From Vulcanimicrobiota bacterium (GTDB taxonomy: Bacteria; Vulcanimicrobiota; Vulcanimicrobiia; Vulcanimicrobiales; Vulcanimicrobiaceae): DNA of 10,731 nt. The position numbers and the translations under genes are program-made. The stretch lies in the NCBI GenBank assembly GCA_003133025.1, contig PKZK01000071.1:1-10731 (forward strand), read 5' to 3'. This document shows, piece by piece, positions 458 through 10,731 of this stretch. The notes under the pieces were generated by a model. That model ran no database searches, was not told where the DNA came from, and saw nothing but the letters and a program-made list of their open reading frames with translations. Each line of letters opens with the position of its first letter. Positions within the stretch are counted from its first letter, which is position 1.

Positions 458-488
458 AAGAGACCCGGCACGTCGTGCCGGGTCTCTT
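458..488. terminator. Intrinsic terminator, probably bidirectional, between the convergent amidase and lipoprotein 1 genes
   Basis: Perfect 14-bp inverted repeat AAGAGACCCGGCAC (458-471) / GTGCCGGGTCTCTT (475-488) with a 3-nt loop. On the minus strand the GC stem runs into a pyrimidine tail UCUCUUCUCUUCU. It lies 7 nt after the amidase stop and 19 nt after the lipoprotein stop. Confidence 0.85.
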
Positions 489-507: not shown

Positions 508-1665
508 TTAGCGGTGCAGGTACAGCGTCCGCTGAGCCTGTTTGCGCAGACCGCGCGGATCGCGGGCGCGAGCACCGGTGCCGCTACCGTACGAATAGAC
601 GAAGTCGGCGAAGGTGACGTCGGTTTGTCCCGCGCTGCCGACCAGCGTGGGCACCTGATTGGTGTTCGCCGGCGGCGCAGCTTCGAACGCGGGGTAATCG
701 GCGCCGGCGAGTTGCACGAGGATCGTGTCGCCCGAATTGAAGGTCGTCGTCGGCGGGTTGCCCGGGCCGATGTCGCCCGGGAACGAGACCGACGTTTGGC
801 CTGCGGTCGCGACCGCGGTGTACACGCCGCCCGAGGTGATGTCGACCGCGTTGACGATCGTTTCGGTGACGCCGGCCGGAGGCTTTCCGAAGGTGATCGT
901 GGCGCCGCCCGAGCCGCTCGCGACGAAGTCCGGCGTGTTCGTCCACGGCGGTAACGGCTTCGTCTTGCTCAGCGTCGCCGTGACCGTCGGCGAGACGTAG
1001 GTTCCCGTATTGGAGGTTTGGATCGTGAGCTTCACGCCGTACCCGCCCGTGACCGGCGTGGCGTAGAAGGTGGTAAAGCCCTCGGAGTAGCCGTTGAACG
1101 CCGCGGGGTAGTCGCCGTTGCGGAAGTTGGGGAAGGCCGGCGGGCCGCCGATGAATTGATCCTGCGGACAATTCGGTTGAGCGGCCTGGCAGCTCGGATC
1201 TTCGTCGCCCGCGTAAAACGGCAGCGTGTTGAAGCTGCTGATCAGGTCGCCCGAGGTGTCGCTGTTATCCGGCTGGATGCCGTACGAGAAGATACCGTTG
1301 CTCGTGGAGAGCGTCGAGGGTTTTGCGGTTTGGCCGGGCAGCACTTGCAGCGATCCCGAGATGATGTTGGTGCCTGCATCGTCGCCGGCCTGAGCGCTCG
1401 GCGGCACGATGAATGTCGCCGGACCCGTGATGGTCGGCGTGCTGAGGCCCGTGGCCGAGTCGCCATTGGCCTGGCGCCACGTCGCGACGACGTTGAGTCC
1501 GACGGTGCCGTCGTTGAAGGTGGCCACACCGACGGCCGCATTGATGCGGTCGCTGGAGAGGTTTGCCGAGGTGTATCCCGGTTGCAGTCCGCTGTTGCCG
1601 GACGTGCACCCGGTTGCCAAACCCAGGAGAGCCACCGCAGCTAGGGATGGACTAAACTTGCGCAA
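508..1665 (-). CDS. Lipoprotein 1, uncharacterised receptor-associated lipoprotein (385 aa; TTG start)
   Basis: The ORF-track start at 1863 overlaps the receptor gene. A TTG at 1665 follows TAAGGAG (1682-1676) by 10 nt and gives MRKFSPSLAAVALLGLATG-C20, a signal peptide II with lipobox. The body is Ser/Thr/Gly/Pro-rich and collinearly homologous to the 9408..10691 protein. Confidence 0.85.
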   Translation of the reverse strand: MRKFSPSLAAVALLGLATGCTSGNSGLQPGYTSANLSSDRINAAVGVATFNDGTVGLNVVATWRQANGDSATGLSTPTITGPATFIVPPSAQAGDDAGTNIISGSLQVLPGQTAKPSTLSTSNGIFSYGIQPDNSDTSGDLISSFNTLPFYAGDEDPSCQAAQPNCPQDQFIGGPPAFPNFRNGDYPAAFNGYSEGFTTFYATPVTGGYGVKLTIQTSNTGTYVSPTVTATLSKTKPLPPWTNTPDFVASGSGGATITFGKPPAGVTETIVNAVDITSGGVYTAVATAGQTSVSFPGDIGPGNPPTTTFNSGDTILVQLAGADYPAFEAAPPANTNQVPTLVGSAGQTDVTFADFVYSYGSGTGARARDPRGLRKQAQRTLYLHR

Positions 1666-1675
1666 TGGATTCTCT

Positions 1676-1682
1676 CTCCTTA
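1676..1682 (-). promoter_or_regulatory. Shine-Dalgarno of lipoprotein 1, overlapping the receptor 1 stop codon
   Basis: The minus strand reads CTG TAA GGAG AGAGAATCCA TTG CGC AAG, so the TAA stop is part of TAAGGAG. Confidence 0.7.
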
Positions 1683-4600
1683 CAGCTTGAGCTGATAGTA
1701 GAAACGCAACGTCAGCGGCGTTTGGTTCGGGCTGATCAAGTACGGGTCGTAGCCGTACCGGTCGTTCGCGTACTGCGACGAGATCCCGAGCTCGGGGAAC
1801 TGGTAGAACGTCTGGCTCGAGCCGGTCAGCGGGCCGCCGATGCCGGTTGCAACGGGCTGCCAACGCGCGTTCAGTCCCGGATTTCCGTAGAGCTGGTTGA
1901 ACAAGTTGGCAATCTGCAGACCGAAGGTATGGTGCGACCCGGGCGGGCTGAACTCGAAGGACACGTTGGTTCTGAAGTGCGGCGACGAGAGCACGCCACC
2001 TGCCGAAGCGCTCTCCGGCGTGCCGCGCGTCGCGTAAATGTTCGGGTGGAAGAACGAGCCCGGGTTGAGCGGGTCGACATACGCCCAGGCGCCGGTCGAA
2101 CCGAACGGCGAGGTGACGTTGGTCTCGGCCACGTTGTATGGTTTACCGTTGACCACGAACGGTGCGATCGTACCGGCGCCGATCGGATAGCCGCGATCGT
2201 AGCTGATCACCGGGTTGATGCGGAAGCCGCCGTGCGTCTTGTACTGCAGGGCAAGCGTTGACTGGAACGGCGAGAGGAAGCCGACGCGGTACAGGTTGCC
2301 CAATTGCAGCGATTGGATCGGAATCGACGGGAAGAAGTCTTCGCTCGCCGAGGTCGGGATCACGTTCGAAAACTCGTTGATGTACGTTGCCGAAAGCGAG
2401 CCCGAGAAGCCGTACGCGGCCTCCTTCGTCAGGTAGAACTCGAGGCCGGTGGTCTTCGACGTGCCGAGATTCGTCTCGGTCGACGGACCGAACTCGTACG
2501 AACCGTCGGGAGCGAGAAGCGGCTGGCCCGTCGCCGGGTTGATGCGCGGTTCGTCGACCAAGGCCAACTGGTTATAGCCGCGGCGGTAGAACGGCGTCAG
2601 CTTGACGCTGATGTTGTCGGGAAATTGGTGCGAGTAGGAGCCTTCCCAGTTGGTGAAGGTTTCCGGCTGCACCGGCTGAATCGGCACGCCCTCGATCAGG
2701 TTCTGGTTGTCCCAGCGCAACTGCTCGGCGTAGTTGTGGCATAGTCCGTTTTGGAAGATACCGCAATACGTCGCCGGCGAGTTCGTGAAGACGTTGTACG
2801 ACGGCACGTTGGCATAGGCGCTGTAGATGCCGACCGGGTTCATCAAGTCGATGTCGCCGAGCGACGCGAGTTCGACCGAGCGCGCGAATTCCGCGCGGAT
2901 CGCATCGTTCTTGGTCAACTGATACGAGAAGGCCAAGCGCGGTTCGGGCACGACCGGATGGGTCTCGCTGGTCGTCAGCGTCGTGTACGGGTAGAGCTGC
3001 CCTTGCGAGTCCTTGTGGTACCCGGTCGGCGCGTAGTTGCACTCCGCCGCGGTGTTGTACCAACTCGTCGGGTCGGACGTGTTCTCCGCGCCGCTGGTCG
3101 GATTACAACCGGTGAGCGGCGGCAGTTGGTAATTGGTCGAGTCGACGCGCAAGCCGGCGTTGATCTTCAACCGGTCGCTGGGCGAGAACTGGTCGAGCAA
3201 GTAGAACGACGCATCTTGACGATCGGTCACGCTCTGCTCGTTGTTGCGCGGGATCTGGCCGGGGCCGGTCAGCGACCAGTTCGGACCGCCGGTGCTCTTG
3301 AAGTTGTTCCACAGATAGCCGCACTGGCCGGCGCCGAAAATGTACGACGTGGGGCAATACGCACTGTTGGGGCTGACGAAGTCGCCGACTTCATAGCCCG
3401 GGCTGCTGCCGATCAATCCGCCCGACGCGGCGAGCACGCCGTCCACCGGGTCGACCTGGTCGTAGATCGGCTTGAGGAACTCGTACTTGCCGCCGAACTG
3501 GACCAGGTTCTTGGAGTTGATCTGCTTGGTCGAGTCGAGCGCGAGGCCCGAGCGCGAGCCGCCCTGCTTGAGGTACAGGCTCTGCTCGAAGATGTCGTCT
3601 TCGAGGAAGGGGAAGTCGAACGTCACGACCGCATTCGTGCGATACGCCTTGAGCGTAAAGAACGTCGAAGCGTCGATGTTGTTCGAGTACTGGAGCTTCC
3701 ACACGTCGTTGGGCTGATAGTAATTCTCCGGCCCGCGATCGAGCGGCGCGGAGTAGCACGGCGTGTTGAAGGCCGGCCCGGCGGCGTACGGGATCGTCTC
3801 GGAAGCCGTGGTACAGGTCGAAAGTTGGCTCAGGGCCGGCTGTCCGGGAATGCGCTCGGCGAGTTGGCCGAATTGATACGGATTCAAGCCCGTGTAGAAG
3901 GGCAGGTAGTACATGTCGAACTGGTCGCCGGCCGCATAGCTCATGCCGCCGTAGCCGCCGTAGTTGCCCAAGAAATTGTTGGTCTGGTTCTCGTAGAACA
4001 ACTGCAGCGATTGCTGGTTGCTCTTGCCGAACTTGTAGATGAGGTTATTGGTCAGGTTGTCGGAGATGAAGAAGTTCGTTGCGTAGAAGGCGCCCGTGCC
4101 CAGGTCCTTGGCGACGGTGCCGCGCGAGCCGAACTGGTTGTTCTCGCGGGTGCCGGTGTAGGCGATGTAATCGGAGAACCGGTTGTTGGGCGTCGCAAAG
4201 CCGTATTCGAAGCTCAACTGGTGATCGAAGGGCTGCGCCAACGCGTCGACTTCTATGTCGCCGAACGCGGGGTTCGAACCCCGCTTCGAAATCAGGTTGA
4301 TGACGCCGGTACCGGTGTTGCCCTGCGAGGCGTCGCCCGCGCCGGGAATCAACTGCAACTCGCCGATGCCCGGATTGATGGCCAGCGAGTTGATGAACTG
4401 CGAAGTGAAGGCGTCGGTGTAGTCGATGCCCTCGAACTGGAAGCCCTCTTCGTTCTCGCGGCCGCCGCGTAGAACGGGGTAACCGCTCGAGTCGAGGCTC
4501 GCACCGGGAAGGCTGACCAGCAAGTCGGTTTCGCTGACGGCGTTGGCCTTACCGAGTTGCGTCGTGATCTGCGACGAACTCACCGTGTACGTGTCTTGCG

Positions 4601-5030
4601 TCTGCGTCGGCTGGAACGCGCCGCCCGGACTGCGCGCGCTGACCGATCCGATGGTCTTGAGCGACTTCTGCAGTCCGGTGGTGACCTGCGCTATCTGGTC
4701 GGCAAACACGTTGACGCCGGTCAGAGAGGCCGGTTGGTATCCGGTTATTTCGAACGACACCGTATACGTGTCGGGCGAGACGCCGGTGAACGACACGAAA
4801 CCTTTCGCGTCGGTCTTGCTGGAATATTGCCCGGTCGGCGAAACCGCGGTGACGCGGACGCCGGCGAGCGGGGCCCCGGTCTTCCCGTCGGTAACCGTTC
4901 CCGAAATCGTCCCGGTCGTGCCCGCTAAAAGGGTCCCGGCCGAGTTGACGAAGAGGGCGATTGCCAAAAGGACGCCGACGATAAGACGGCGACCGTAGCC
5001 CCGCGGGTTGAAGCGTGAAACAACGAACAC
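1680..5030 (-). CDS. TonB-dependent outer-membrane receptor 1 with N-terminal carboxypeptidase-regulatory-like domain (Oar-like architecture), 1116 aa
   Basis: GTG start 6 nt after AAGGAG. Sec signal peptide (..RRLIVGVLLAIALFVNSAGTLLA). CarboxypepD_reg-like segment GTISGTVTDGKTGAPLAGVRVTAVS...TDAKG...DTYTVSFEITGY. TonB-box-like LKTIGSVSARS. Plug motifs LPGASLDSSGYPVLRGG...FQFEGID and GDASQGNTGTGVINLISKRG. Barrel motifs DRLKINAGLRVD, PEPRLAFSYQL, IRAEFARS, LQIANLFNQ. Amphipathic last strand LRFYYQLKL. Confidence 0.93.
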   Translation of the reverse strand: MFVVSRFNPRGYGRRLIVGVLLAIALFVNSAGTLLAGTTGTISGTVTDGKTGAPLAGVRVTAVSPTGQYSSKTDAKGFVSFTGVSPDTYTVSFEITGYQPASLTGVNVFADQIAQVTTGLQKSLKTIGSVSARSPGGAFQPTQTQDTYTVSSSQITTQLGKANAVSETDLLVSLPGASLDSSGYPVLRGGRENEEGFQFEGIDYTDAFTSQFINSLAINPGIGELQLIPGAGDASQGNTGTGVINLISKRGSNPAFGDIEVDALAQPFDHQLSFEYGFATPNNRFSDYIAYTGTRENNQFGSRGTVAKDLGTGAFYATNFFISDNLTNNLIYKFGKSNQQSLQLFYENQTNNFLGNYGGYGGMSYAAGDQFDMYYLPFYTGLNPYQFGQLAERIPGQPALSQLSTCTTASETIPYAAGPAFNTPCYSAPLDRGPENYYQPNDVWKLQYSNNIDASTFFTLKAYRTNAVVTFDFPFLEDDIFEQSLYLKQGGSRSGLALDSTKQINSKNLVQFGGKYEFLKPIYDQVDPVDGVLAASGGLIGSSPGYEVGDFVSPNSAYCPTSYIFGAGQCGYLWNNFKSTGGPNWSLTGPGQIPRNNEQSVTDRQDASFYLLDQFSPSDRLKINAGLRVDSTNYQLPPLTGCNPTSGAENTSDPTSWYNTAAECNYAPTGYHKDSQGQLYPYTTLTTSETHPVVPEPRLAFSYQLTKNDAIRAEFARSVELASLGDIDLMNPVGIYSAYANVPSYNVFTNSPATYCGIFQNGLCHNYAEQLRWDNQNLIEGVPIQPVQPETFTNWEGSYSHQFPDNISVKLTPFYRRGYNQLALVDEPRINPATGQPLLAPDGSYEFGPSTETNLGTSKTTGLEFYLTKEAAYGFSGSLSATYINEFSNVIPTSASEDFFPSIPIQSLQLGNLYRVGFLSPFQSTLALQYKTHGGFRINPVISYDRGYPIGAGTIAPFVVNGKPYNVAETNVTSPFGSTGAWAYVDPLNPGSFFHPNIYATRGTPESASAGGVLSSPHFRTNVSFEFSPPGSHHTFGLQIANLFNQLYGNPGLNARWQPVATGIGGPLTGSSQTFYQFPELGISSQYANDRYGYDPYLISPNQTPLTLRFYYQLKL

Positions 5031-5036
5031 TCGAAA

Positions 5037-5042
5037 CTCCTT
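5037..5042 (-). promoter_or_regulatory. Shine-Dalgarno of receptor 1
   Basis: Minus strand AAGGAG-TTTCGA-GTG (6-nt spacer to the GTG at 5030). Confidence 0.75.
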
Positions 5043-5089
5043 CAGTGTGCGCTTCGTGGGAGAACCCTGGGTTGGGCCTGATATCGGTT

Positions 5090-5104
5090 AATTGCCGCTC
5101 AATT
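5090..5104. promoter_or_regulatory. Candidate operator palindrome in the divergent receptor 1 / DMT intergenic region
   Basis: AATTG-CCGCT-CAATT, an AT-rich dyad in the middle of a 126-bp GC-rich divergent intergenic region. The regulator is unknown. Confidence 0.35.
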
Positions 5105-5156
5105 CCTTGCACTTGGCCGTCTCGCCGAGGTCACCGTTAGCGGCTCCGCGGCGGGT

Positions 5157-5990
5157 GTGGCCGGCATCGGTTTGGCGCTCCTGGCGGCGGTCTCGTATGG
5201 CTCGGCCGACTTCCTCGGCGGCATAGCAAGCCGCCGCCTCCCGGCGGCGGTCGTGGTCGTGTCCTCGCAGGTCGCCGGATTGGCGCTGCTCGTGGCGCTG
5301 CTGCCGCTCGTACCGGGCCATTTCCATGCCTCGGATTTGGGCTGGGGTTTGGCGGCCGGCGTGTTCGGCGCGGTCGGGATCGGCGCGCTCTACGCAGCCC
5401 TTGCCGTTGGAAGGATGGGGCTCGTCTCTCCGGTCACGGCCGTGGTGGGCGCGAGCGTCCCGGTCGTGTGGGGCTTGCTCAGCGGCGAGCGCCCGGGTGC
5501 GGCTGCCTTGCTCGGCGTCGGCCTGGCCTTTATCGCCGTGGTGCTCGTCTCGACCAACGTCGAGACGGGCCGAATCTCGCCACGCGAGCCGGGCATCGGG
5601 CTGGCCTTGGTCAGCGGGCTCGCGATCGGGCTGCTCTACGTATTGCTGGCCCAGGCACACCGGGACTCGGGTCTCACGATCTTGGCGGCCGGCCGGCTCA
5701 GCTCGATCCCGCTCCTGGCCGCGTGGGCGCTCGCCAAGGGCGAGCGGCTCTTCCCGCCCCGGTCGCTGTGGGGCACCCTGGCGCTGACGGGGGGCCTCGA
5801 CATGGGAGCCAACGTGCTCTACGTGCTCTCCGCGCGGGTGGGCCTGGTGTCGATCGCCGCGGTTCTCACCTCGCTCTATCCCGCGGCCACCGTCTTCCTG
5901 GCTCGCGTCGTTTTGGGCGAACGGCTCAGCGCCGTGCAGTGGGCGGGGGTCGGCTGCGCTGCTGCCGGGGTCGCTCTGATCGCCGTTTGA
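5157..5990 (+). CDS. EamA/DMT (drug-metabolite transporter) family inner-membrane protein, 277 aa
   Basis: About 10 hydrophobic helices in two repeats. N-terminal LALLAAVSYGSADFLGG; repeat-end motifs SPVTAVVGASVPVVWGLLSGERP and SLYPAATVFLARVVLGERLSAVQWAGV are typical of EamA. The GTG start has no obvious SD, so the exact start is uncertain. Confidence 0.9.
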   Translation: MAGIGLALLAAVSYGSADFLGGIASRRLPAAVVVVSSQVAGLALLVALLPLVPGHFHASDLGWGLAAGVFGAVGIGALYAALAVGRMGLVSPVTAVVGASVPVVWGLLSGERPGAAALLGVGLAFIAVVLVSTNVETGRISPREPGIGLALVSGLAIGLLYVLLAQAHRDSGLTILAAGRLSSIPLLAAWALAKGERLFPPRSLWGTLALTGGLDMGANVLYVLSARVGLVSIAAVLTSLYPAATVFLARVVLGERLSAVQWAGVGCAAAGVALIAV

Positions 5991-6031
5991 CCGGGCGCCT
6001 GCTCCGGCATCCGGCCGGGTAACGCCCGGGC

Positions 6032-6237
6032 GAGCGACCCTCCGGCCTATGTCGTAGCAAACATTTTGACGACATTAAAAAGGAGCGAGGGCCGCCGCGG
6101 CAAAGGTCGCTTCCGGACCCTCAGCAACCCTTAAGAAAACTAGCATTTCCGAGGTCCGGTTCCCGGCAATAGCGAGCCCAGGCGATCTTAACGAAGAGCC
6201 GTGGTCTCTCATAGCCGGCCGCCGGACCCATGGGAGA
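6032..6237 (+). promoter_or_regulatory. Putative structured regulatory leader / promoter region of receptor 2
   Basis: Several inverted repeats: AGCGACC 6033-6039 / GGTCGCT 6105-6111; ATGTCGT 6049-6055 / ACGACAT 6069-6075; CCGGACC 6113-6119 / GGTCCGG 6153-6159; TCTCTCAT 6205-6212 / ATGGGAGA 6230-6237, which covers the SD. No known riboswitch class recognised with certainty. Confidence 0.35.
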
Positions 6238-6244
6238 GTGGATC

Positions 6245-9200
6245 GTGGAATTCGTTCCGCTGCGAGGCCCGTGGAAACGGGTCATCGCATCATGTACTGC
6301 CCTGGCTATGATCGCCGGGCTGCTTGCGTCGTTCTCCGCCCCGGCTTCGGCCGCCGGCGGTCAGTACGGCGCCATCGCAGGCTACGTCATTGACGGCAAG
6401 ACCAAGGCCGCCGTTTCGGGAGCCTCCATCTCCGCCGCCTCGCCGACGGGCCAATTCAAGGCCTCGACCGACGTGCGCGGTTATTTCAACATCCCCGGCG
6501 TCAACGTCGACACGTTCACCGTGTCGATCGAAGCCAAGGGCTACGACCCGCTGACGTATACCGGCGTCACCGTCTTCGGCGACCAAACGGTCAACCTGGG
6601 CCAGATCAGTCTGACCAAGTCGCTGTCCACCATCGGCACCGTCAAGGCGCGCTCGATCGCCTCGGTCTACCAGCCGAATCAGACGATCGACTCCTACTCG
6701 GTCAGCGGCGACCGCATCACGCAGACCGCCGGTAAGGCGAACGCGACCGACGAAACCGCCCTCGCCCTGGCCGTCCCCGGCGTGTCGTTGACCAACACGG
6801 GCAACATCACGATCCGCGGCGGCCTGCGCACCGAGGTCGGCTATCAGTTCGACGGCGTCGACTTCACCGAGCCGTTCTTCTCGCAGAGCGCTTCGAACAA
6901 CCGGTACAACGGCATCCAGTCGCTGCAGGTCGTCGAAGGCGCGGGCGACGCGACCCAAGGCAACGTCGGCGGCGGCGTGGTCAACTTGATCCCGAAGCGC
7001 GGTACGTATCCGCCCGACGGTTCGGTCGACTTCGAAGCGGGCGCGCCCAATTTCGCGCACCAGTTCGCAGCCGAATACGGCATCGCTTCGCGCGACGGCC
7101 GCATCTCGGATTACGTGTCTTACACGGGCGACCGCGACGTGCCGTACTACGGCTGGCACAGCGCCGACGCCGGTTCGTACGGTAACTACTTCGGCGTCTC
7201 GTACGAGAAGAACGACGACTTCGTCAACAACTTCATCTACAAGTTCGGCAAGAACAACAACCAGTCGCTGCAGGTGCTCTACCTCAATCGCGACCTCCAG
7301 CAGTACGGTAATTTGGGCGGCCTCAGCGGCCTCTCGTTCTACCCCGCCGATCCGTACAACCCGCTCGGCACCCCGGTGCTCGGCTCGTACTACACGAAGC
7401 TGATCGGTCTCAACCCGGGCACGCCGCAGAACGGCAACTACACGGTAACGTCGCCTGAAGAAGTCAGCTTCAATCCGACGCGCTACCTGAAGTTCGAATA
7501 CGACAACACGCTCAACGCCAAGACGTTCCTCCAGGCTCGTTTCTACAACTGGGAGACGCTCCAGGGCGGCAGCAATAATACCGGCACCTCGGCGATCGCC
7601 TCCGGCGACGGCCTGGGCGGTTATCCCAACTGGAACCAGACCGGCGGTCCCCGCGTCGGCGGCACGCTCGACCTCACCGAGCAGTTCAGCTCGAAGAACG
7701 TCGTGACGATCTCGACCAAGTACGAGACCGCGCACCCGATCTGGGACGGCTACGATCCCAACGCGATCTACTTCCTGACGCTGTTGGGCATCCCGGGCGA
7801 GGCGTCGATCACCGACTTCCTGCCGGGCGGCTATCTGTCGCAGTACTTCCCGAACGGCGTGCCGCGCATCCCGAACTCGGGCATCAACTACAATAAGGCC
7901 TGGTACCAGACGTTCGGCGTCGGCCTGCGCGAGCAGTGGCAGCCCAACGATCGCCTCAAGGCCGACCTCGGCGTTCGCGAAGACGGACAGAACCAGAACT
8001 ACGGCATCAACCCGTTCAATACGTTCGATCCGTCCAATCCGTCCGACGTCAACCCGGCGGGCATCTCCCGCAAGTACCTCAACCCCCGCGAACTCGAGCC
8101 CCGCATCGCGGTCAACTACCAGGCCGGCAATAACGACGCGTTCCGCGTCGGGTACGGCCGCTCGGTGGTCTTCCTGAACGCGCAGACCTCGGGTACGCCC
8201 GGCGGCATGTACAACTATCAGCCGTTCCTCAGCGTTCCGGCAACGCCCGGCGCGCTCTGCGGCAGCGGTAAGAACACGTCGCTCCAAGCCAAGAATCCCA
8301 ATGCGCCGAACTACAGCCCGCTCGCGCCGTACTGGTCTTGCGCCAACTACGCCGACGAACTGTACTGGCTCTACGACCAGAACTTCGACGCTCCCGACCT
8401 CGGCGGCGCGTTGCCGGCGGCGTACAACAACTACGACTTCACCTACCAGCACCAGTTTGCCGGCGGCTACGGCCTGAAGGTCACGCCGTTCTACAAGCTC
8501 GGCACCAACCTGCCGTCGTTCGCACTGCTCAGCAGCGGTCTGACCAGCGGCGCCGCGGTGTTCACGGTGAACAACGAAGGCATCAACCGGACGACCGGTG
8601 TGGAACTCGGCCTCACGACGCCGGAGCACCCGTACGGGTTCAGCGGCTTCTTCTCGGCCACGTACCAGAACGTCATCGGTTCGACCCCGCCGCTCATCGG
8701 CGGTGAGGACGCCCTGCCGATCAACGGCTCGGGTTCCCTCGGTCTCGGCGACACCTATCGCGCAGGCTACGTCTCGCCGGCTTCCGCCCGTATCGGCGGC
8801 ACCTACAAGACGAAGAGCGGTCTGCGCTTCACGCCGACGCTCCAGTACGATCGCGGCTACCCGTATTCGCTGGGTAACACGATCGCCACGAACTGCACCC
8901 CGTTCTCGAACGCGGTTCAGGTGAACTTCGGCTGCGCCGTCAACCAGGTCCCCGGCTACCAGGGTCAGCCCGGTACGACCGGCTCGACCAACTACGCCGA
9001 CCCGGCCAACCCGGGCACCACGGCGCACCCGAATGTCGCGTGGACGCGCGGTACGCCGGGCACGTCGTCGAGCGGCGGCGTTCTCTGGCAGTCGAACCTG
9101 CAGGCCAACTTCACGACCGAGTACGACGTGCACGGAACCACCATCGGTATCTCGCTGCGCAACCTGTTCGGCAACGCCTACAACGGTCAGGTGCCGATCG

Positions 9201-9394
9201 TCAACCCGTACTACCAGCCGGTTGCCAACGGCATCTCGGGCCCGCTGACCGGCCAGAACCCGTACGCCAATGTGTTCCCGGGCCGCGGCTTTGCCAACGT
9301 CCCGACCAACGCGTACGCGTTCAGCAACGGAGCCTACCTATTGCTTCCCAACCAGCCAACCACCATAACGCTCTACCTGCAGCGGAAGATCTGA
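6245..9394 (+). CDS. TonB-dependent outer-membrane receptor 2 with N-terminal carboxypeptidase-regulatory-like domain, ~1049 aa; paralog of receptor 1
   Basis: The ORF track starts at ATG 6230, but the in-frame GTG at 6245 has GGAG (6233-6236) 8 nt upstream and is preferred. Signal peptide ..KRVIASCTALAMIAGLLASFSAPASA. GAIAGYVIDGKTKAAVSGASI...DTFTVSIEAKGY; LSTIGTVKARS; plug VPGVSLTNTGNITIRGG...YQFDGVD and GDATQGNVGGGVVNLIPKRG; barrel DRLKADLGVRED, LEPRIAVNYQ, FRVGYGRS, LRNLFGN; last strand ITLYLQRKI. Confidence 0.93.
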   Translation: MEFVPLRGPWKRVIASCTALAMIAGLLASFSAPASAAGGQYGAIAGYVIDGKTKAAVSGASISAASPTGQFKASTDVRGYFNIPGVNVDTFTVSIEAKGYDPLTYTGVTVFGDQTVNLGQISLTKSLSTIGTVKARSIASVYQPNQTIDSYSVSGDRITQTAGKANATDETALALAVPGVSLTNTGNITIRGGLRTEVGYQFDGVDFTEPFFSQSASNNRYNGIQSLQVVEGAGDATQGNVGGGVVNLIPKRGTYPPDGSVDFEAGAPNFAHQFAAEYGIASRDGRISDYVSYTGDRDVPYYGWHSADAGSYGNYFGVSYEKNDDFVNNFIYKFGKNNNQSLQVLYLNRDLQQYGNLGGLSGLSFYPADPYNPLGTPVLGSYYTKLIGLNPGTPQNGNYTVTSPEEVSFNPTRYLKFEYDNTLNAKTFLQARFYNWETLQGGSNNTGTSAIASGDGLGGYPNWNQTGGPRVGGTLDLTEQFSSKNVVTISTKYETAHPIWDGYDPNAIYFLTLLGIPGEASITDFLPGGYLSQYFPNGVPRIPNSGINYNKAWYQTFGVGLREQWQPNDRLKADLGVREDGQNQNYGINPFNTFDPSNPSDVNPAGISRKYLNPRELEPRIAVNYQAGNNDAFRVGYGRSVVFLNAQTSGTPGGMYNYQPFLSVPATPGALCGSGKNTSLQAKNPNAPNYSPLAPYWSCANYADELYWLYDQNFDAPDLGGALPAAYNNYDFTYQHQFAGGYGLKVTPFYKLGTNLPSFALLSSGLTSGAAVFTVNNEGINRTTGVELGLTTPEHPYGFSGFFSATYQNVIGSTPPLIGGEDALPINGSGSLGLGDTYRAGYVSPASARIGGTYKTKSGLRFTPTLQYDRGYPYSLGNTIATNCTPFSNAVQVNFGCAVNQVPGYQGQPGTTGSTNYADPANPGTTAHPNVAWTRGTPGTSSSGGVLWQSNLQANFTTEYDVHGTTIGISLRNLFGNAYNGQVPIVNPYYQPVANGISGPLTGQNPYANVFPGRGFANVPTNAYAFSNGAYLLLPNQPTTITLYLQRKI

Positions 9395-9407
9395 GGTGCG
9401 CTCCACG

Positions 9408-10691
9408 ATGAATCGTTCACTCACCGTCATCGGTTTGAGCGCGACGCTCGGCCTGACCGCCTGCAGCGGTTCGGGCACGTCACCGCAAAAGCCGACGACT
9501 CAGAACCTCAACGCCAACGTGCTGCAAGTAGCCGTTGGAACGGCCAACCTCTACGGAGACTTGGCCGGCGGCGGGAGCACGAGCTACTTCGGCTCGGGCC
9601 TCAACGTCGCCACGACCTATCGCCAATCGAAGACGCAATTGTCTCCGGGCGATAGCGCGGTGGCGGTCAGCGCACCGACCCTGAGCGGTCCGTTCACTCT
9701 GAACATTCCGGTTGGGACCGGCGGTGCGGGCACGGCCTACTCGACGATCGCAACAGGTCCGGCTCCCGTCGAAATCGGCGGTAGCTCGATCACCGCGACC
9801 GGTCAAACCAGCACCATCGTCACGACGTTCGGCACCGCCGGCGGCGTTTCGGGTCTGGGTATCGAGCCGTTCAACTTCAATAGCGAGAACGGCACGCCGT
9901 ACTCGTACGTCCCGTACACGGTACCGGCGTACGACCCGACGACCGATACGAACTTCTTCAGTCCCGAGGGTTACCCGCCGGCGTTCCCGAGCCTCGCGGG
10001 CACGGGCAGCCCGGCTGCGGCGTACAGCGAAGGCATCGACGTCTTCGCGCAAGTGACGCCGGTCGCCGGACCCTACACCCTGAGCGTCTCGGTGCCGATC
10101 GCGAACAGCCCGACGTTCACCACCTCGAAGACGGCTACGCTCACCTCGACGGCGCTTTTGCCGCCGTGGGCTCCGCAGACGCCTTCGCTCGATTCCAACG
10201 ATGACGGCGGCGCGTCGTTTGCCGTCACCCTGCCGGCCGGCGTGACGGAAGGCTACATCCAACTCGTCGACGTGGGTCCGGGCGCGAGCAGCGTGTCGTG
10301 TAACGGTTCGAGCGCGAGTGCTCCGACGTTCTACACGATCTTCGTCAACGCGTCGGGCACCGCGACCCTCGCGGGCAACCTCGGTACCGGCGGCACGCCG
10401 TCGATCTGTACCGTGGATCTCAATACCGCGGCAAACGCCGGCGTCGCGACGCCCGGCGACGTGTTCACGGTGCAGTACGTCGGATTCGACTACCCCTGGT
10501 ATGAGGCGTCGTATCCGAACAGCAACGGTAACCCGGCGCCGGCCATCACCGGCGCCAACGGCCAAGCCGACGTGACGATCTCGTCGGCCACCGGCTACCA
10601 AGAAGTCGCCGAGAGCGGCATCAAGACGATCAAGAGCTTCCGTGCGAAGAACCTGCACGCGAAGGCCCTCAAGTACAAGCTACACCGCTAA
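9408..10691 (+). CDS. Lipoprotein 2, uncharacterised receptor-associated lipoprotein (427 aa); paralog of lipoprotein 1
   Basis: ATG 9408 lies 9 nt after GAGGTG (9393-9398), which overlaps the receptor TGA; the ORF-track GTG at 9396 is part of this SD. MNRSLTVIGLSATLGLTA-C19 has the canonical lipobox LTAC. It shares many ordered motifs with lipoprotein 1. Confidence 0.88.
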   Translation: MNRSLTVIGLSATLGLTACSGSGTSPQKPTTQNLNANVLQVAVGTANLYGDLAGGGSTSYFGSGLNVATTYRQSKTQLSPGDSAVAVSAPTLSGPFTLNIPVGTGGAGTAYSTIATGPAPVEIGGSSITATGQTSTIVTTFGTAGGVSGLGIEPFNFNSENGTPYSYVPYTVPAYDPTTDTNFFSPEGYPPAFPSLAGTGSPAAAYSEGIDVFAQVTPVAGPYTLSVSVPIANSPTFTTSKTATLTSTALLPPWAPQTPSLDSNDDGGASFAVTLPAGVTEGYIQLVDVGPGASSVSCNGSSASAPTFYTIFVNASGTATLAGNLGTGGTPSICTVDLNTAANAGVATPGDVFTVQYVGFDYPWYEASYPNSNGNPAPAITGANGQADVTISSATGYQEVAESGIKTIKSFRAKNLHAKALKYKLHR

Positions 10692-10709
10692 TCGCGGCTA
10701 GCGCTCAAC

Positions 10710-10731
10710 AAAAAAGGGACGGGGTCGATGC
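10710..10731. terminator. Probable 5' arm of an intrinsic terminator, cut by the window end
   Basis: AAAAAA followed by G-rich GGGACGGGG, 18 nt after the lipoprotein 2 stop, at the position equivalent to the terminator arm after lipoprotein 1. The complementary arm is not in the window. Confidence 0.4.

Follow-up and report, generated by a model that had tools for sequence, protein, structure and literature searches.

A class-wide gene pair of Vulcanimicrobiia: TonB-dependent receptors and a downstream lipoprotein as candidate surface helper

Two large TonB-dependent receptors encoded side by side in the genome of a Vulcanimicrobiota bacterium from peat soil are each directly followed by a lipoprotein of an unnamed family, which raises the question of what such a lipoprotein does for its receptor. 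The window, i.e., the whole stretch of 10,731 nucleotides that was analysed, corresponds to contig C231 of genome G000 (80% complete) and carries the genes in the order lipoprotein 1 <- receptor 1 <- / EamA -> receptor 2 -> lipoprotein 2. We give about an even chance to the reading that the lipoprotein is a surface helper, a lid or catcher, for TonB-dependent import by its receptor, with the substrate left open. The two pairs consist of the following elements:

508 to 1665, minus strand: lipoprotein 1, 385 aa, TTG start at 1665, lipobox Cys20, no family match
Residues about 34-234 and 235-362 of lipoprotein 1: two predicted FN3/Ig-like beta-sandwiches with long Gly/Pro/aromatic insertions
Ends of lipoprotein 1: ~19-residue tether behind Cys20; basic C-terminal tail
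1680 to 5030, minus strand: receptor 1, 1116 aa, with signal peptide, CarboxypepD_reg extension, plug and barrel
6230 to 9394, plus strand: receptor 2, 1054 aa, with a possible alternative GTG start at 6245
9408 to 10691, plus strand: lipoprotein 2, 427 aa, ATG start, lipobox Cys19, basic C-terminal tail

Receptors 1 and 2 share 34% identity over 1156 columns (E 7e-157) and the two lipoproteins 31% over 430 columns (E 3e-31); the family profile matches lipoprotein 2 with E 5.6e-77. From stop to start the gap is 14 nt between receptor 1 and lipoprotein 1 and 13 nt between receptor 2 and lipoprotein 2, and a purine-rich run resembling a Shine-Dalgarno sequence before the TTG of lipoprotein 1 overlaps the receptor 1 stop. 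A sequence-only reading of this DNA had described the five-gene order, the divergent layout and the homology within both protein types, all of which held, with every gene at its position. It had also correctly stated that the window lacks tonB/exbBD; an exbB-exbD-exbD-tonB cluster is located at C17:6123-8456 of the same genome. In addition, a third receptor-lipoprotein pair is present in this genome on contig C125. Named homologues stem from Eremiobacteraeota/Vulcanimicrobiota records, which would put the genome in this phylum, class Vulcanimicrobiia.

Linkage of the two genes was determined in 71 regions around lipoprotein matches, leaving out two matches at contig starts, genome G117 and the window itself. 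The lipoprotein was present in 68 regions, the other three being contig-end fragments, and one of the 68 had no upstream DNA, so that 67 loci were evaluable. A receptor of one clade was located directly upstream on the same strand in 63 of these, so that the gene order in the window is not a product of chance; the remaining four comprise the C-terminal fragments L086, L092 and L100 and the intact solo gene L091. In a second locus set, which may overlap the first and is not summed with it, 24 of 25 evaluable lipoproteins were linked to a receptor, L142 being solo. The gap between both genes ranged from -4 to +35 nt in 55 of the 60 loci with a called start, and stop and start overlapped or abutted in 27 of the 60.

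The converse was determined by running a receptor profile on 62 genomes (50 lipoprotein-positive without G117, 11 negative, and G000). Matches split into the full-length clade and a sister group matching the N-terminal 60% only. All 11 lipoprotein-negative genomes of the same class also lacked the receptor clade, which was found in 49 of 51 lipoprotein-positive genomes, the exceptions being a fragment-only genome and one with the gene at a contig start. Among 74 evaluable clade receptors, 65 have the lipoprotein behind them (five further receptors end at contig ends), including 55 of the 57 in groups f1 and f2, and seven of ten were linked in three further genomes. No such lipoprotein was found behind the eight evaluable sister-clade receptors or behind the other TonB-dependent transporters (TBDTs) of G000. 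Because the receptor profile was built from linked receptors, the definition of the clade leans towards these; a tree including ten sister receptors supports the clade. One of the three further genomes encodes four receptors within 20 kb, and the three evaluable ones each have a lipoprotein of their own, with 44-47% identity among them.

Trees of 51 intact pairs, built like the receptor tree with FastTree, agreed closely (Mantel r 0.89; 0 of 2000 permutations as high). The pair trees contained 35 and 27 supported splits, of which 20 were shared and four lipoprotein splits were in conflict. Inter-protein covariation over 62 pairs (effective number of sequences 40) yielded a top Z of 5.1 versus 4.8 in a neighbour-swap control, i.e., no signal. 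Two checks suggested by the sequence-only reading came out in its favour, in that homologs nearly always follow this receptor clade and that receptor and lipoprotein trees co-diverge.

The lipoprotein family is broad within this class. A word search returned 161 relatives and a full profile search 411 clusters at 50% identity, of which the best 150 were analysed as family rows. With the profile, matches were obtained in 51 of the 62 other Vulcanimicrobiia genomes (f1 43/54, f2 1/1, f3 7/7, the last including the unpublished G117, which enters this tally only) and in none of 58 genomes from other groups of the phylum. A pattern scan over all GTDB species returned 29 loci, 22 of them titled with names of this phylum, three with 'bacterium' and four as proteobacteria; one of the latter, L134, adjoins the amidase gene also found in the window. 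The family therefore occurs in most sampled genomes of a class that is common in peat, moss and permafrost. A search of the openly accessible literature found no description of this receptor-lipoprotein pair.

Neither window lipoprotein matched any Pfam or NCBIfam family at E<=0.1, and 120 family members searched against Pfam returned three single weak matches only, none to a SusD family. BamE, suggested as a relative by a search of the lipoprotein profile against the PDB, was rejected, as the match covers the signal-peptide region only (E 0.01). Both signal peptides end in a lipobox (LATG-C20 in lipoprotein 1, LTA-C19 in lipoprotein 2), the Cys of which is invariant across the 150-row alignment, and a lipobox-like sequence occurs at 59 of 61 called family starts. 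A tether of about 12-19 residues follows, and the partner has a mass of about 30-45 kDa. Conserved positions of the family are Gly, Pro, Tyr/Phe, one Arg and few acidic residues, with no Trp or His; hence, no Trp glycan platform or His metal site is evident. A Cys pair (298/334 in lipoprotein 2 numbering) occurs in about two thirds of the rows. A basic C-terminal tail is present on both window lipoproteins (511-580 and 10620-10688) and on 40 of 150 family rows; at a stricter threshold, it was found in four of 78 crudely defined lipobox proteins of the genome. This tail is perhaps a surface-binding or export signal.

An AlphaFold2 (AF2) model of the lipoprotein based on 120 rows (predicted local distance difference test, pLDDT, 88; predicted template modelling score 0.87) consists largely of beta structure, interrupted by long ordered insertions. 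It shows two tandem FN3/Ig-like sandwiches without tetratricopeptide repeat (TPR) helices, and its strand pattern is unlike a propeller. The listed structural matches are tandem FN3 domains with Z 5-6.8 (the best with Z 6.8, root-mean-square deviation (rmsd) 8.4, 184 aligned), values at which a match may reflect only a common arrangement; the C-terminal domain alone gave Z 5.5 and rmsd 2.0 over 93 aligned residues. Template modelling (TM) scores from Foldseek were about 0.2, indicating no close fold match without implying that the fold is novel. In the ESM Atlas, all feature matches remained below the bar of 0.9 (Myxococcota clusters 0.87 and 0.85), and structure matches, from a poor Atlas model, had TM below 0.4. 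The family is unnamed, and its modelled fold differs from those of characterised TBDT partners in the searches made.

Pfam assigned CarboxypepD_reg, a weak Plug and a TBDT barrel to the receptors; for receptor 1, PF13620 was matched with E 1.5e-14 and PF00593 with E 2.8e-13, the latter above cut-off. Both window receptors show Oar-type architecture, defined by a PF13620/PF13715 extension before the plug (PMC6434023). In the AF2 model of receptor 2 (68 rows, pLDDT 86), the N-terminal extension and the plug are followed by a barrel of 22 strands. EL3, EL5, EL7, EL10 and EL11 are very large extracellular loops, and EL7 carries a conserved Cys pair (677/704). The model matched solved TBDTs with Z 30-35, e.g., BtuB with Z 35.1 and rmsd 2.7 over 533 aligned residues. 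SusC/RagA models of NCBIfam matched neither window receptor at E<=0.1 and none of 22 receptor-clade members at E<=0.01; the top 50 structural matches of the receptor 2 model contained no SusC entries, which does not exclude SusC likeness. A segment L-x-T-I-G/A-x-V/T-x-x-R-S is kept between extension and plug and has low model confidence, as a TonB box would have. The Pfam matches and the model of receptor 2 place the receptors among TBDTs of Oar/SusC architecture, without SusC signatures. On all three points, i.e., receptors without SusC signatures, a non-SusD partner and beta-rich lipoproteins, the sequence-only reading agreed with the profile searches and the models.

Receptors 1 and 2 are most alike in the plug (52% identity), followed by the extension (45%), the strands (38%) and the extracellular loops (25%, 111/442); the low value in the loops compared with plug and extension would fit different ligands for the two paralogs. 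The last residue of clade receptors is far more often aliphatic (as in ...YYQLKL and ...YLQRKI; window 1683-1700 and 9374-9391) than Phe. A terminal Phe is typical of proteobacterial outer-membrane barrels, and the aliphatic C-terminus suggests a lineage-specific BamA signal.

In the mechanism we propose, receptor and lipoprotein would be co-translated as an operon, as the short gap of -4 to +35 nt implies. Lgt, LspA and Lnt would triacylate the lipoprotein, which would then reach the cell surface by a route other than the canonical Lol pathway. There, the short tether would hold the first beta-sandwich against the extracellular loops of the barrel, so that a lipid-anchored helper on the receptor loops may aid the import of a nutrient while TonB pulls the receptor plug. 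A private lipoprotein for each paralog would fit contact with the variable loops better than contact with the conserved periplasmic parts. We infer that a surface role is favoured by the short tether, by the private partners and by the sister receptors that carry the same extension without this partner. Short tether and tandem Ig/FN3 fold are also reminiscent of accessory lipoproteins on the surface of Bacteroidota.

A number of observations weigh against such a surface helper. Nine of the 74 evaluable clade receptors have no lipoprotein (7/17 in f3, 2/57 in f1 and f2, both of the latter being near-duplicates of linked receptors), as is the case for three of ten in the further three genomes, and loss of the lipoprotein in the receptor clade needs at least five changes on the tree. 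Conversely, the intact solo lipoproteins L091 and L142 occur without an adjacent receptor. Comparison of partnerless with partnered receptors identified no lost loop or motif, only L132 and E175 being different. In addition, agreement between receptor and lipoprotein trees is expected from physical linkage alone, and a scan of 65 flanking proteins, taken from 103 first neighbours and two further C125 genes, gave housekeeping functions and no consistent clue to a substrate; glycoside hydrolases or lyases, as expected in a polysaccharide utilisation locus, were absent among these neighbours. As clade receptors lost the lipoprotein several times, the helper would be accessory and not an essential subunit. 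Coupling of receptor and lipoprotein is strong and class-wide, and it is not obligatory. In each of the genomes G063 (L091, L117) and G138 (L142, L163), an intact lipoprotein gene without receptor and a clade receptor gene without lipoprotein occur at distant sites and may represent a split pair that works in trans.

What speaks most against a lid is that a Lol pathway was not detected. LolA was not identified by PF03548 or by PF16584 in five genomes in which controls were positive, PF17131 gave sub-threshold matches only, in three of the five, and no LolC/E was above cut-off in 12 genomes, again with positive controls. This fits statements in the accessible parts of PMC11784454 and 10.1101/2021.05.31.446380 that neither Lol nor outer-membrane lipoproteins occur in diderm Terrabacteria, statements which, in these parts, do not name this phylum. 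Lgt was found in five of five and Lnt in 12 of 12 genomes, and the genome contains an Omp85/BamA gene. Slam (PF04575) was absent from five genomes but equally from all 14 controls, and SusD (PF07980) was absent from five genomes with a positive control. NCBI places the phylum under Bacillati, which we take to be the name corresponding to Terrabacteria. According to the available text of PMC9758169, the envelope of the cultured representative is of the Gram-negative type and includes an outer membrane; the same paper describes Vulcanimicrobium alpinum WC8-2, a cultured member of the class. By a crude pattern, about 78 lipobox genes occur genome-wide despite the lack of any detected Lol component.

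That no Lol pathway was detected would fit a lipoprotein anchored in the inner membrane and acting within the periplasm, where it might take over the ligand, engage the N-terminal extension or TonB, or chaperone the barrel to BamA. A periplasmic position would also agree with the placement of the phylum under Bacillati, as diderm Terrabacteria are said to keep lipoproteins out of the outer membrane, and with the unchanged extracellular loops of partnerless receptors. However, a tether of about 12-19 residues together with two small domains is unlikely to bridge a periplasm of the usual dimension, and the modelled fold is not of the periplasmic-binding-protein type. Furthermore, the receptor parts facing the periplasm are the most conserved ones, which makes it hard to see why each paralog would need a partner of its own, and sister receptors possess the same N-terminal extension without such a partner. 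We regard a periplasmic role as clearly less probable than the surface role, but as a serious competitor to it. The surface helper might likewise be an illusion of co-regulation, the lipoprotein being an adhesin, a structural or a ligand-concentrating protein of surface or envelope that forms no stable complex with the receptor. Tandem FN3/Ig folds are common in adhesins, receptors and lipoproteins both occur alone, and with about 78 lipobox proteins, by the crude pattern, in this genome a lipoprotein neighbour is not rare. Against this, the family occurs essentially only behind this receptor clade, always downstream, and the linkage, with its frequently overlapping stop and start, spans three families and several duplications, rendering the absence of a complex distinctly improbable. 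Least of all do we expect the receptor to be an Oar-like exporter with the lipoprotein as cargo or export adaptor, the pair perhaps being itself a non-Lol surface route: the shared domain order (signal peptide, PF13620 extension, plug, barrel), the undetected Lol pathway and housekeeping instead of catabolic neighbours would suit it, but the extracellular loops are large and variable, as would be expected for ligand capture, and lipoproteins have been kept in places where no receptor adjoins them. Moreover, by the accessible portion of PMC6434023, 28% of TBDTs have Oar architecture, which is the dominant type in Bacteroidetes, where SusC proteins serve import.

The surface helper thus retains its about even standing. 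The more specific proposal, that Vulcanimicrobiia independently evolved a TBDT capped by a tandem-FN3 lid which is delivered to the surface without a Lol pathway, is put forward tentatively and is somewhat doubtful.

The question remained why two such pairs occur back to back. Window pairs 1 and 2 belong to different subclades, each being nearer to pairs of other genera, and pair 2 is closer to pairs from another family than to pair 1; the nearest neighbours of receptors 1 and 2 differ likewise. A local tandem duplication was rejected for the lipoproteins, as a tree joining lipoproteins 1 and 2 received a p-AU of 0.00024 in an approximately unbiased (AU) test on 40 rows, 11 near-identical rows being omitted. 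Of the duplicated and intact twin unit in the sequence-only reading, the homologous two-gene pairs stood, but they do not stem from a local duplication. The other elements of the window are these:

5157 to 5990, plus strand: EamA/DMT (drug/metabolite transporter) inner-membrane transporter, PF00892 E 1.8e-24
458 to 488, minus strand: 14-pair terminator-like hairpin downstream of lipoprotein 1, on the side of the convergent amidase; consensus match only
1 to 450: amidase gene (PF01425), 3' part, pointing towards lipoprotein 1

Over the whole window, terminator-like sites numbered five versus 8.6 expected by chance, and a promoter scan identified one site versus 1.3 expected. The EamA gene is part of a backbone of RNase J, permease, amidase, EamA, dehydrogenase and FtsK genes, some of these names being tentative. 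This backbone is empty in some genomes and has one module on either side in others, so that the back-to-back layout represents two old paralogs at two favoured sites. In several genomes, pairs of the module-1 type likewise have the amidase as their next gene downstream. EamA as a part of the system was rejected, since the backbone occurs without modules at L104 and L105 and since, in six genomes with both, the best EamA match and the lipoprotein lie on separate contigs or at a distance of about 750 kb. Neither the twin layout nor the EamA gene is thus more than incidental, the pairs being old paralogs in a housekeeping region. At L103 (G016:C173) and L100 (G035:C36), only a broken C-terminal lipoprotein remnant is left between EamA and dehydrogenase, and the G016 remnant is flanked by two copies of a small secreted gene that is found after the window (C231:10781-11500). 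These remnants are traces of module loss at the same site.

Among metatranscriptomes of peat, moss, plant and permafrost samples, 17 runs contain parts of window 5000-10731. In four runs from four studies, contigs extend over receptor 2, lipoprotein 2 and portions of module 1, many of these contigs with at least 99% identity, and one RNA contig (717-1753) bridges the junction of receptor 1 and lipoprotein 1; such contigs show no strand, level or single transcript. Three of these RNA runs cover C125:1-12000 patchily (3-16 of 30 bins), compared with 29 of 30 bins in a run whose library type is unrecorded; this difference speaks against mere carry-over of DNA in the RNA runs. The 3' half of EamA is without cover in four RNA runs, although contigs can neither show absence nor rank genes. 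A codon-bias proxy placed the genes weakly, in the 71-92nd percentile.

Some observations concern possible substrates. The third module (G000:C125:290-10614, L101) is followed by a second, unrelated lipoprotein without Pfam family (C125:7178-8461), which about 17 loci of that subclade (L045-L066, L071, L085) have kept in the same position. A LuxR-type regulator is located upstream of this locus, and the multi-lipoprotein layout recalls SusE/F accessories. In three genomes of the same subclade, a secreted PBP_like_2 (PstS-like) protein adjoins the receptor (L101:293-1903, L044:6144-7100, L051:3-1247), and its gene is covered by RNA contigs in two of three runs. For this subclade only, the PBP_like_2 gene is a weak hint at a phosphate-related substrate. 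The B12-type receptor of the genome is a separate gene on C48, the annotation of its neighbours being tentative.

Among known systems, the pair shares with SusC/SusD and RagA/RagB a large TBDT (about 1050-1150 aa), a CarboxypepD_reg-type extension and a lipoprotein directly downstream, as well as several paralogous pairs per genome (SusCD features as given in the accessible text of PMC13543919). It differs in that no SusC/RagA model matched, that the partner is all-beta whereas SusD is a helical TPR protein, that no glycoside hydrolases were found among the neighbours scanned, and that the host belongs to another kingdom-level lineage in which Lol was not detected. BtuB/BtuG of Bacteroides likewise combines a TBDT with an adjacent all-beta lipoprotein on a short linker (PMC10404256, in part), but BtuG is a beta-propeller on a BtuB of about 620 aa, whereas here two beta-sandwiches are predicted next to a much larger receptor. 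TbpA/TbpB, LbpA/LbpB and HpuA/B of Neisseria and Pasteurellaceae consist of a TBDT and an accessory, non-essential surface lipoprotein and occur outside Bacteroidota; in contrast to TbpA/TbpB, no TbpB-type Pfam match was obtained here and the tether is short instead of a long anchor peptide. With Oar of Myxococcus xanthus, the receptors share the domain architecture with a PF13620 extension before the plug. A lipoprotein gene, mlpA, is presumably located behind oar in M. xanthus. Oar differs in being required for protein export, i.e., for secretion of the protease PopC in Myxococcus (PMC6434023, in part; Oar is also treated in the accessible text of PMC3222651).

The pair therefore resembles SusCD, BtuBG and TbpAB in layout and is not a SusCD member, as the receptors matched no SusC/RagA signature model and the partner no SusD family. 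By the available text of PMC10404256, lipoprotein-capped TBDTs seem exclusive to Bacteroidetes, and SusCD-like pairs occur in some Gammaproteobacteria, likely by transfer (PMC13543919, in part). If the lipoprotein were a true surface lid, it would represent a lid-type system outside Bacteroidota with a surface lipoprotein in a diderm Terrabacteria lineage, and would break two published generalisations, that capped TBDTs are confined to Bacteroidetes and that diderm Terrabacteria are devoid of outer-membrane lipoproteins; a surface location would imply a convergent lid and an undescribed trafficking route for lipoproteins. If it were periplasmic, it would be a new kind of periplasmic TBDT partner. 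The design of a TBDT plus a lipoprotein is already known from the systems above, and to these the present pair adds a new, class-wide and uncharacterised partner family.

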